This document shows, piece by piece, positions 6,126-10,239 of a stretch of 64,000 nucleotides of DNA. Both the position numbers and the translations under genes were made by a program. The stretch's first letter is position 1; every line of letters starts with the position of its first letter. The stretch covers positions 4,443-68,442 of the forward strand of contig JAGXKI010000006.1 of assembly GCA_018335295.1 (NCBI GenBank), read 5' to 3'. Under the pieces are notes generated by a model, which was not told where the DNA came from, did no database searches, and saw only the letters and a list, made by a program, of their open reading frames with translations. Source of the DNA: a bacterium (GTDB lineage: Bacteria > Acidobacteriota > Aminicenantia > Aminicenantales > Aminicenantaceae).

Positions 6126-6503
6126 TTAGTTGTTGGATTGACTCAGAGCCTTCTCTATAGTCGAAATCAACTCTTTCTCTTCAAAGGGTTTGTGGATGAA
6201 ACCAAAATGTTTTATTTTCCGAGTTTTTTCCTTAGTAGCCTCATCTCCGTAGGCCGTGAGATAGATCACAGGGAGATTGAAGCGCTTCTTTAAATGTTGG
6301 GCGGCTTTTAATCCATCTATCTTTCCCTTTAATTTTATATCCATCAAAACCAAATCTAATTTTAGCAGGGAGGCTTTTCTTAGGGATTCTTCTCCAGATG
6401 AAACCACAGCAGAAACATCATACCCCAGCTTTTCTAATATTTGTTGGATATCCATAGCCACGATTGTTTCATCCTCTACCACCAAAATCCGATGCTTAGT
6501 CAT
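6126..6503 (-). CDS. Single-domain response regulator (receiver only)
   Basis: ILVVEDE, LVLMDI, YLTAY, FIHKPF; 125 aa with no output domain. Confidence 0.9.
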   Translation of the reverse strand: MTKHRILVVEDETIVAMDIQQILEKLGYDVSAVVSSGEESLRKASLLKLDLVLMDIKLKGKIDGLKAAQHLKKRFNLPVIYLTAYGDEATKEKTRKIKHFGFIHKPFEEKELISTIEKALSQSNN

Positions 6504-6627: not shown

Positions 6628-6661
6628 AAAAAAAAGAGAGGGATTACCCCTCTCTTTTTTT
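6628..6661. terminator. Bidirectional-type intrinsic terminator hairpin
   Basis: A-tract-GAGAGGG-atta-CCCTCTC-T-tract, 16 nt downstream of the stop of 6678..7688. Confidence 0.8.
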
Positions 6662-6677: not shown

Positions 6678-7688
6678 TCAGTTTATGACAATAATTATTC
6701 TGGAAAGATGAAATTTATTTTTATCTAAGAGCTGAATATCTGCGGATTGGCCTCCGATTTCCACACGGTAATCAATTCCCTCTTCTAAATGCTTGGGCAG
6801 GAGTTTCACTTTCTTAATGGTATTTGCTTCAACATCAGAAGCACTCACGGAGATAACCTCCGTCTTACGAAGGTCCACACGATTTTGATAGTCAGCAAAG
6901 CTCACTTCTTTCACGTTAATCCCGATGATACCGAGAAAAGAACCTTTAATTTTATTCTGAGCTTTCAATTCCTCACGGGTACCCACAAAATAATAGACTG
7001 AATTCAGTTTGGACTCCAGGTTTGCTTTCTGGTTTTTGAGTTCTGAAATATCCTGTTCCAAAGAAGATATCTGATCATTTAACTCTACTTTATCCTGTTC
7101 TAAATCTTCGATTTGGCTTCTCAATTGTTCACCCTTTTTCTCCAGGTCAGCAATTCGTTTTTCCAACTTGGCTTTCTCTTCTTTGATCTTTTTCTCTTTC
7201 AATCTTTTTACAGTTCCAGGAGAGACTTTGGCATCACCTTGAGTAACAAAAGTTCCGTAGACCTGACCGTAAAAATAGTGCCACACTTTGTATCCTATGT
7301 GGATGGGATGTAAGAGATGGGATTTGGCCAGCATATTTCTGGCTTCAGCTGCAGGAACATTTTTCTCTGTGGTAAGAAAGTCAAAGGCTAATCCCCAATG
7401 ACTATCTCCTCGTTGTACCACATTGGGTTCAGGAATCTGTTCCTCAAGATCTGCTTTCTCCTTTTCTAACTGAGCGATGGTCTTTTCTTTTTGGGACAAT
7501 TCTTTCTCTAGGTCAGATATCTGGGTTTCTAGTTTCTGGATTTCCTGTTCCGGTTCAGGAGGGGCTTCTTCTTCAGCTTGTTCTCCACCGCCACAGGAAT
7601 TGAGAAAGATAACTCCAGCTATTAAAACCAAATAAAAAGGGAAAGATAACCAACGTTTGGGGGCTAATCTTTTTATGTTCATTTTCAT
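6678..7688 (-). CDS. Coiled-coil lipoprotein with LysM-like insert and a C-terminal domain resembling Cbp1-family collagen-binding adhesins
   Basis: Lipobox-like FLNSC; heptad coiled coils; NVVQRGDSHWGLA (LysM-like start); C-terminal LNSVYYFVGTREELKAQ...DLRKTEVI...KKVKLLPKH...F..S..IIIVIN pattern, recalled from Bacteroides Cbp1-type proteins. SD GAGGAGG. Confidence 0.6.
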   Translation of the reverse strand: MKMNIKRLAPKRWLSFPFYLVLIAGVIFLNSCGGGEQAEEEAPPEPEQEIQKLETQISDLEKELSQKEKTIAQLEKEKADLEEQIPEPNVVQRGDSHWGLAFDFLTTEKNVPAAEARNMLAKSHLLHPIHIGYKVWHYFYGQVYGTFVTQGDAKVSPGTVKRLKEKKIKEEKAKLEKRIADLEKKGEQLRSQIEDLEQDKVELNDQISSLEQDISELKNQKANLESKLNSVYYFVGTREELKAQNKIKGSFLGIIGINVKEVSFADYQNRVDLRKTEVISVSASDVEANTIKKVKLLPKHLEEGIDYRVEIGGQSADIQLLDKNKFHLSRIIIVIN

Positions 7689-7942
7689 TCTATCCTCCTC
7701 GTTATTTATTTATCAAATCCTCAAGCATAAGTCAAATAAAATTGTATTCCTATGTCATGTATTCTTGGGAGAAAGTAAATTTTCATCCAAAACTCACGTA
7801 AAGAAAGCCCCATGCCTTCCCTCAACCTCCATTTCTCAAATTTGAGAGTCTCTTCCCCCCCTAAACCTTGACTTTTTAACCTTAAAAGAGTTTATAATTT
7901 TATTTACATTCATTCATAAATTATGGAAAGGAAACAGAGCGA

Positions 7943-9732: not shown

Positions 9733-9933
9733 CTTTTCTCCCTTTCATTTTATGAACTCACAAGCTTGATTCACGGATATTGTTTTTTCTTTTTATCAAA
9801 GCTTGAGTTTTTGGTCAAATAAATTTTTATAATCCCTACCCTTTTTCAACAAACTAGAGGATTTTCACAAAAATTTTATTTGACAAAATTCATCCAGTTT
9901 AGTAGTCATCTATTTAAGAATAAGAAGGCGTTG

Positions 9934-10239
9934 ATGAAATTTTTGAAACCACCAAGCCTTTTCCTCATTTTGGTCTTGGTCTTTTTTAGTTGTGCTCCCG
10001 GGCCCAATGAACTCGAAAAAACACCCGATGAAGAAGGAATGGTCGCAGGATTCTGGAAAGGAATTTGGCACGGTCTGATCGCTCCCATAACCTTTGTCAT
10101 TTATGTTTTCTACAGGAATATCCATTTCTATGAAGTTCACAATAATGGCTTCTGGTACAATTTTGGTTTTATAATGGGAGCGGGGCTTTTTTTGAGCGGG
10201 GGCATTCTGGGGCATTCCGGGAAAAAACGACACAACTGA
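9934..10239 (+). CDS. Small conserved hypothetical lipoprotein/membrane protein
   Basis: Likely start ATG 9934 (the track starts at TTG 9880); lipobox-like FFSC; AGFWKGIWHGLIAP...NNGFWYNFGF. Confidence 0.7.
   Translation: MKFLKPPSLFLILVLVFFSCAPGPNELEKTPDEEGMVAGFWKGIWHGLIAPITFVIYVFYRNIHFYEVHNNGFWYNFGFIMGAGLFLSGGILGHSGKKRHN

Follow-up and report, generated by a model that had tools for sequence, protein, structure and literature searches.

A remote relative of Cbp1 from an Aminicenantales genome belongs to a separate family of membrane-anchored, rod-shaped envelope proteins

The DNA considered here (hereafter the window) is a 64,000-nucleotide (nt) stretch of contig JAGXKI010000006.1 (positions 4,443 to 68,442) in GenBank assembly GCA_018335295.1, from a bacterium of the Aminicenantaceae (Acidobacteriota; Aminicenantia; Aminicenantales). 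An open reading frame (ORF) of 336 codons, read from the window sequence, occupies exactly 6678..7688 on the minus strand, is present in one copy in the window and encodes a protein of 336 amino acids (aa), referred to below as the window protein. The initial annotation saw in it a surface-binding lipoprotein of the Cbp1 collagen-adhesin family with an extra LysM-like insert. The question is whether a resemblance to Cbp1 of Bacteroides fragilis makes this protein a collagen adhesin. Profile and pairwise comparisons show, at the level of sequence, that the C-terminal domain, the helix preceding it and the lipoprotein organisation are remotely homologous to Cbp1, of which the window protein is a distant sister and not a family member. 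The family to which it does belong is distinct and uncharacterised and consists of membrane-anchored, rod-shaped envelope proteins; we consider it fairly probable that the window protein acts as a periplasmic tether or spacer and not as a collagen adhesin.

Relationship of the C-terminal domain to Cbp1

Whole-protein searches of Pfam, NCBIfam and PDB sequences returned almost entirely coiled-coil noise (APG6, SMC, Rad50, GCN4), and the top PDB match, 8qox, is a repetitive coiled coil. As this noise swamps whole-protein searches, the domains were analysed one by one. The top whole-protein match was NCBIfam NF052320 (Cbp1_fam_LP), with 44.4 bits and E=1.4e-11 over profile positions 124-254 of 286, reached partly via the coiled coil; the curated cut-off of this model is 90 bits. 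The C-terminal domain alone matched the same model at positions 188-276 of 286 (E=3.3e-5, also 1.1e-5), and the second helix (residues 158-228) aligned to the Cbp1 coiled coil at positions 124-188. Sixteen of 28 C-terminal domains from the family matched NF052320 independently, and no other family recurred. No match to NF052320 at E<=1e-6 was obtained with ten members that are distant or lack the middle domain (P0161 of 255 aa and P0169 of 293 aa among them), and a region-restricted, word-based search with the C-terminal domain found its own family only and did not reach Cbp1.

The forward primer published for BF0586 (PMC3949742), reduced to its native part, served to retrieve an authentic Cbp1 from the genome collection. 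The retrieved protein, P0203 (285 aa), scored 349 bits on NF052320 over positions 1-286, and this score, together with an S16/C17 site and a D32-S33-L34 motif as described in PMC3949742, identifies it as Cbp1; the Bacteroides gene lies at 1054-1911 of locus L005. BLASTP of the window protein against P0203 gave E=8e-6 with an aligned stretch of 150 residues at 25% identity, which starts in the second coiled coil and extends into the C-terminal domain. Reciprocally, a hidden Markov model (HMM) of the family C-terminal domain matched each of the 121 Cbp1 proteins retrieved, in every case at residues 188-244 and right after their coiled coil, with ~17 bits and an E-value of ~3e-7 for a single comparison. 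The Cbp1 sequences retrieved are all >91% identical, and their alignment has an effective number of sequences (Neff) of 1.1. An hhalign comparison of the C-terminal domains only gave E=5.3e-5 over 85 columns.

Both proteins have an N-terminal lipoprotein signal and a long coiled coil that runs straight into a C-terminal alpha/beta domain of ~100 aa. This domain opens in both with (L/I)NSxx(F/Y)xxGT..ELK, continues with D(L/I)R and a conserved Pro, and has a hydrophobic beta-strand at its end (IIIVIN in the window protein, YLVIQVK in Cbp1). Nine of the 22 positions that are at least 80% conserved in the family are identical in Cbp1 (N229, S230, L241, D272, R274, I279, P298, D306, and F326), and the remaining positions mostly show conservative changes. 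The resemblance of the last ~110 aa to B. fragilis Cbp1, as put forward in the initial annotation, is borne out by the NF052320 match and the hhalign comparison as a real, remote homology of the C-terminal domain. The peptide strings quoted in support of it are all found in the ORF, and the description of the product as a lipoprotein with coiled coils agrees with a lipobox at Cys32 and with the two long helices of the AlphaFold2 (AF2) model.

Identity in the shared domain is ~23%, and the window protein adds a 72-aa LysM-like domain, on whose HMM Cbp1 scores <=0 bits, as well as an extra N-terminal coiled coil. In Cbp1 (~285 aa) everything from the lipobox to the C-terminal domain is helical, but in the window protein a globular domain splits the rod. 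A regular-expression search of the 336 aa found no Bacteroides O-glycosylation motif, D(S/T)(A/I/L/M/T/V), which is the basis of the “glycoprotein” label of Cbp1. The window family comes from Aminicenantes/Acidobacteriota, and Cbp1 from Bacteroidota. Because score (44 bits against a cut-off of 90), architecture and glycosylation motif all set the window protein apart, its proposed membership in the Cbp1 family is not upheld.

Cbp1 (B. fragilis BF0586) bound collagen I in Far-Western assays and affinity chromatography, and both bands were lost in a cbp1 mutant (PMC3949742). In whole-cell adhesion to collagen the mutant equalled the wild type (p=0.464), and no collagen binding was seen with Cbp1 fragments in which the C-terminus was kept; an N-terminal binding site is suggested by the authors (PMC3949742). 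Collagen binding is not transferable by homology here, since the region specifically common to the two proteins is C-terminal and the suggested binding site N-terminal. The property is thus unlikely to carry over to the window protein, and the designation as a collagen adhesin finds no support in the behaviour of the Cbp1 fragments or of the mutant cells.

Family architecture and the middle domain

A word-indexed search recovered ~50 homologs in two size groups, one of ~335 aa that is 42-81% identical to the window protein and one of ~381 aa that is 28-36% identical. The few homologs with source names come from metagenome-assembled genomes of Candidatus Aminicenantes and Acidobacteriota. Among 1.84 billion representative proteins, a profile built from the C-terminal domain alone retrieved 183 clusters at 50% identity (E<=0.001), and the domain sits at the C-terminus in nearly all matches listed, save one repeat match of 5477 aa. 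By local HMM searches, 138 of the 143 full-length proteins with the C-terminal domain also carry the middle domain. Since the two occur together in this proportion, the middle domain is a constitutive part of a separate family and not an insertion, so that the idea of an extra insert in a Cbp1 protein had to be given up.

The comparisons and the model together show a fixed architecture consisting of an N-terminal membrane anchor, a flexible linker, a first coiled coil, a half-LysM-like domain, a second coiled coil, and a C-terminal alpha/beta domain. Cys32 of the lipobox is conserved to at least 90% in close-family alignments, and the Asn at lipobox position -2 is non-canonical. The full AF2 model, built from 51 homologs, has a mean predicted local distance difference test (pLDDT) score of 85.6, and in it the helical rod is broken by a globular segment containing VVQRGDSHWGLA. 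Pfam matches to the first helix (residues 46-84) were generic coiled-coil ones only. Foldseek searches of the full model against PDB and BFVD returned nothing below E ~0.08, and at the level of these predicted structures both globular domains are without a detectable solved relative. The C-terminal domain matched no Pfam model in any of the 28 family members scanned; the name “DUF3839”, given by NCBI to one homolog, was rejected on this ground. The family as a whole is without a Pfam or NCBIfam model and is a sister of the barely characterised Cbp1 family, located in another phylum and with an added constitutive domain.

The middle domain follows a beta-alpha-alpha-beta-beta order and, when modelled alone, reached a pLDDT of 92.5 and a predicted TM-score (pTM) of 0.81. 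Family alignments show G94, D95, H97, G132, W136, Q150, and G151 to be conserved in it. Pfam LysM (PF01476) matched the window protein with E ~0.2 over model positions 2-21 of 43. Weak matches to the same model were found in 13 of 26 family middle domains (best 7.9e-4), and again no other family recurred. Against PDB sequences, the family profile hit the LysM repeats of LytE (E=1.9e-4, summed), with SafA and a Thermus LysM protein also listed, in each case over its first ~26 positions only. Nine classic LysM domains, each confirmed as bona fide by 45-73 bits on PF01476, served as a reference set. The profile of the middle domain aligned to them by hhalign with 91.5% probability (E=8.4e-7) over 26 columns with a 5-residue insertion, and the C-terminal domain, as a negative control, reached 1.4%.

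The likeness to LysM consists of the beta1-alpha1-alpha2 start with its V-x-x-G-D-(S/T)-x-W-x-(I/L)-A motif and of a predicted secondary-structure order that starts beta-alpha-alpha-beta. The domain differs from PF01476 in the insertion, which falls between the helices, in the failure of the conserved Asn and the GQxL beta2 region to align, and in an extra beta-strand and short helix that bring it to 72 aa as against ~44. The first half appears to be LysM-type; the second (beta2 and the loop that links it to alpha2) has either diverged or given way to a beta-hairpin. Of the earlier description, then, the LysM-like character holds for beta1, alpha1 and the start of alpha2 and fails for the rest; likewise, a globular segment does interrupt the coiled coil in the model, but only half of it is LysM-like.

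Three proteins found with the C-terminal profile depart from the common architecture. P0083 (800 aa, metagenomic) has a Cbp1-type C-terminal domain at residues 692-800, lacks the LysM-like domain and gives a weak subtilisin/mycosin-like protease match at residues 290-479, a composition which suggests that the C-terminal domain may be a portable targeting or binding module. P0176 (367 aa) combines an SbcC/Rad50-type ATPase head (residues 1-245, E=6e-52) with a Cbp1-type C-terminal domain (residues 263-364) and may be a chimera of assembly or gene calling produced via coiled-coil sequence, or a real fusion. The repeat match noted above, P0095 (5477 aa), contains 11 short stretches that match the profile, all of them at positions 70-95 only, and was not recovered by a local HMM search with the domain threshold. 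P0095 is probably no homolog but a repeat with a resemblance to the KKVxLLP..DYRVEI strand pair.

Envelope location and possible roles

Among 138 full-length relatives, the N-terminus carries a lipobox in 83, a signal anchor in 47 (about one-third) and an apparent truncation in 8. The signal anchor is made up of a cytoplasmic basic stretch and one hydrophobic helix without Cys, with an N-in/C-out orientation. The only position open to the signal-anchored relatives is in the inner membrane, oriented towards the periplasm, which argues for a conserved ectodomain that works in the periplasm and not at the surface. A periplasmic location within the cell envelope is therefore the most likely one for the window protein as judged from the N-termini of its relatives, contrary to the proposed role in surface binding.

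As a periplasmic tether or spacer, the window protein would be lipid-tethered to a membrane by the anchor read from its sequence. Its helices would oligomerise, probably in parallel, into a stiff rod, in which the linker and first helix span ~6-10 nm and would bring the LysM-like domain roughly level with the peptidoglycan layer, where it could bind glycan strands. The second helix would then project the Cbp1-type domain ~11 nm further, to a partner near the opposite membrane. The overall role would be that of an envelope tether or spacer, or of a scaffold joining peptidoglycan to the partner.

A comparable layout is found in Braun's lipoprotein (Lpp) and other membrane-peptidoglycan tethers, with which the window protein has in common a lipid anchor, a long alpha-helical rod of defined length and, putatively, an element that contacts peptidoglycan. 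Some relatives have been auto-named “murein-binding lipoprotein Lpp” by Joint Genome Institute (JGI) pipelines. There is, however, no sequence homology to Lpp past coiled-coil bias, and the window protein is far longer and has two globular domains. We infer a functional analogy only.

Several results weigh against a tether or spacer with a peptidoglycan-binding domain and a Cbp1-type end. The hhalign probability for the Cbp1 domain is just 66.8%, a low value due to the shallow Cbp1 alignment. The match of the middle domain to Pfam LysM (12 bits) lies below the gathering threshold of 20.9, the LysM likeness spans only 26 columns, the conserved LysM Asn is absent, and a Foldseek search of PDB with the middle-domain model found no LysM structure in the top 50 (best E=1.1). 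For these last reasons glycan binding by the middle domain is uncertain, and we regard it as plausible. No conserved operon partner was found either, since the neighbours vary among the seven loci compared (counting the window) and offer no functional anchor. Covalent attachment of the Lpp type was considered and rejected, as the C-terminal Lys is not conserved; the window protein ends in Asn, and the last residue among 142 relatives is N in 47, E in 34, K in 19 and varied in the others. Cbp1 itself ends in ...VIQVK, and its terminal Lys, like that of the 19 relatives, recalls the C-terminal Lys of Lpp.

Other roles can be set against these observations. The window protein could regulate or scaffold the synthesis or hydrolysis of peptidoglycan in the manner of NlpD, EnvC or DipM, with a C-terminal domain that recruits or activates an amidase or penicillin-binding protein (PBP). 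NlpD is a lipoprotein with LysM and a degenerate LytM, and EnvC a coiled coil with a degenerate LytM, so that the combination of membrane or lipoprotein tether, LysM-type module and coiled coil in one envelope protein is reminiscent of these amidase activators; in addition, one distant homolog is encoded 40 bp downstream of a class-A PBP and beside LptF/G. This role is nevertheless unlikely, as no LytM/M23 domain or other enzyme-activator similarity was found in the C-terminal domain by Pfam, PDB sequence or Foldseek searches, and the adjacency to a PBP occurs in only one of the seven loci. We give slightly less weight again to a generic structural coiled-coil protein, in which the globular domains would serve oligomerisation or packing and the LysM-like motif would be a ligand-free remnant of the fold. 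The partial LysM likeness, the uninformative gene context and the failure of Foldseek to find a ligand-binding fold for either globular domain would fit such a protein. What argues against it is the strong conservation, at ~30% identity, of surface-type residues (G94-D95-x-H97, W136, Q150-G151, N229-S230, D272-L-R274, P298, and D306), which is typical of functional sites and not of mere packing, as well as the joint presence of both domains in 138 of 143 proteins.

The original proposal, a surface adhesin that binds collagen or another extracellular polymer via its Cbp1-like part, has an added LysM module for binding peptidoglycan or chitin, and serves a local utilisation of collagen or proline peptides, appears very unlikely. 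It can draw on the remote homology to a protein that bound collagen I in Far-Western assays and affinity chromatography (PMC3949742), and on the exported peptidases, M3 peptidase and POT transporter encoded in the window. However, these peptidase and transporter neighbours are not common to the homolog loci, and the gene is not embedded in a conserved “collagen system”. What the window protein shares with Cbp1, whose binding site is suggested to lie elsewhere (PMC3949742), is limited to the C-terminal domain and a generic coiled coil, and the NF052320 score and the missing O-glycosylation motif point the same way. Moreover, the 47 signal-anchored relatives cannot be surface-exposed, and records of the host lineage stem from environmental metagenomes and not from animal tissue, as the source names also indicate. 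A periplasmic tether or spacer thus remains the reading that we favour.

Gene signals, neighbouring genes and wider meaning

The ORF is a real gene, with a strong Shine-Dalgarno sequence and a terminator of its own (Table 1), and on these signals it is self-contained and probably monocistronic. The promoter was left unassigned, as the best sigma-70-like match overlaps the start codon. The terminator hairpin is perfect over its 14 bp, with arms AAAAAAAGAGAGGG and CCCTCTCTTTTTTT and the loop ATTAC, and the A/T runs on either side make termination possible in both directions. It stands between the 336-aa gene and a gene for a stand-alone response-regulator receiver (6126-6503, minus strand), which has a -10-like TATAAT of its own.

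Table 1. Positions of sequence features of the gene and of protein segments in the window
Feature	Position	Strand	Basis and remarks
Shine-Dalgarno sequence GAGGAGGA	7693..7700	-	4-5 nt upstream of ATG; read directly from sequence
Lipoprotein signal peptide, residues 1-32	7593..7688	-	Basic n-region, hydrophobic core, lipobox L-N-S-C32
Acidic Pro-rich disordered linker GGGEQAEEEAPPE, residues 33-45	7554..7592	-	AF2 pLDDT <50 for residues 31-45
First long helix/coiled coil, residues 46-84 (39 residues, ~5.8 nm)	7437..7553	-	AF2 helix
Globular middle domain, residues 86-157 (72 aa)	7218..7433	-	Family alignments and AF2; first half LysM-like, VVQRGDSHWGLAFDF
Second long helix/coiled coil, residues 158-228 (~72 residues, ~10.8 nm)	7005..7217	-	AF2 helix H157-228, pLDDT >93
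C-terminal alpha/beta domain, residues 229-336 (108 residues)	6681..7004	-	Remote Cbp1 homolog by profile and sequence comparison
Intrinsic terminator, 14-bp hairpin with flanking A and T runs, bidirectional	6629..6661	-	17 nt past stop codon

In the window, the neighbours are the stand-alone receiver domain, a CN-hydrolase, a NusG paralog, a half-size ArsP-type permease, the POT transporter, and the M3 peptidase. Between the genes of the last two lies an ORF of 119 aa (9880-10239, plus strand) that has a lipobox-like FFSC motif, is Gly-rich and hydrophobic in its C-terminal half and has no Pfam match. Near homologs, genes of a diderm envelope (Omp85/POTRA, LptF/G) were found. The distant homolog that follows a class-A PBP (Transgly and Transpeptidase) is P0046, a signal-anchored protein of 390 aa (locus L004, 3807-7173); its gene is flanked by LptF/LptG genes. 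A small membrane protein with a LapA domain (PF06305) is encoded just upstream of the homolog in two of the seven loci (L001, 4185-4556; L006, 4710-4931). The two close homologs in L001 and L002 are both preceded by a baeRF-family gene and followed by a gene for a faint PRC-barrel protein. None of the LapA-domain, baeRF and PRC-barrel neighbours occurs in the window.

The finding concerns one uncharacterised envelope lipoprotein with an inferred function, and through it a compact, unmodelled family of two-domain rods from Aminicenantes and Acidobacteriota, lineages with essentially unstudied envelopes. A far-reaching extension, which we hold to be unlikely, would make the Cbp1-type C-terminal domain the mark of an ancient superfamily of periplasm-spanning “ruler” proteins in Bacteroidota and Acidobacteriota/Aminicenantes. 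One membrane would anchor such proteins, a degenerate LysM (lost in Bacteroidota) would touch the peptidoglycan midway, and the C-terminal domain would contact the other membrane, so that they would act as Lpp analogues setting the spacing of the envelope; the collagen binding of B. fragilis Cbp1 would then be incidental stickiness in vitro and no part of its physiological role.

The module that defines Cbp1 occurs in environmental lineages too. Together with the relatives whose transmembrane anchor points to a periplasmic location, this occurrence makes it less credible that collagen adhesion was what the module evolved for. For annotation, the name “collagen-binding adhesin” should not be spread to proteins of this family, and the results suggest that the physiological role of Cbp1 in Bacteroides deserves re-examination.

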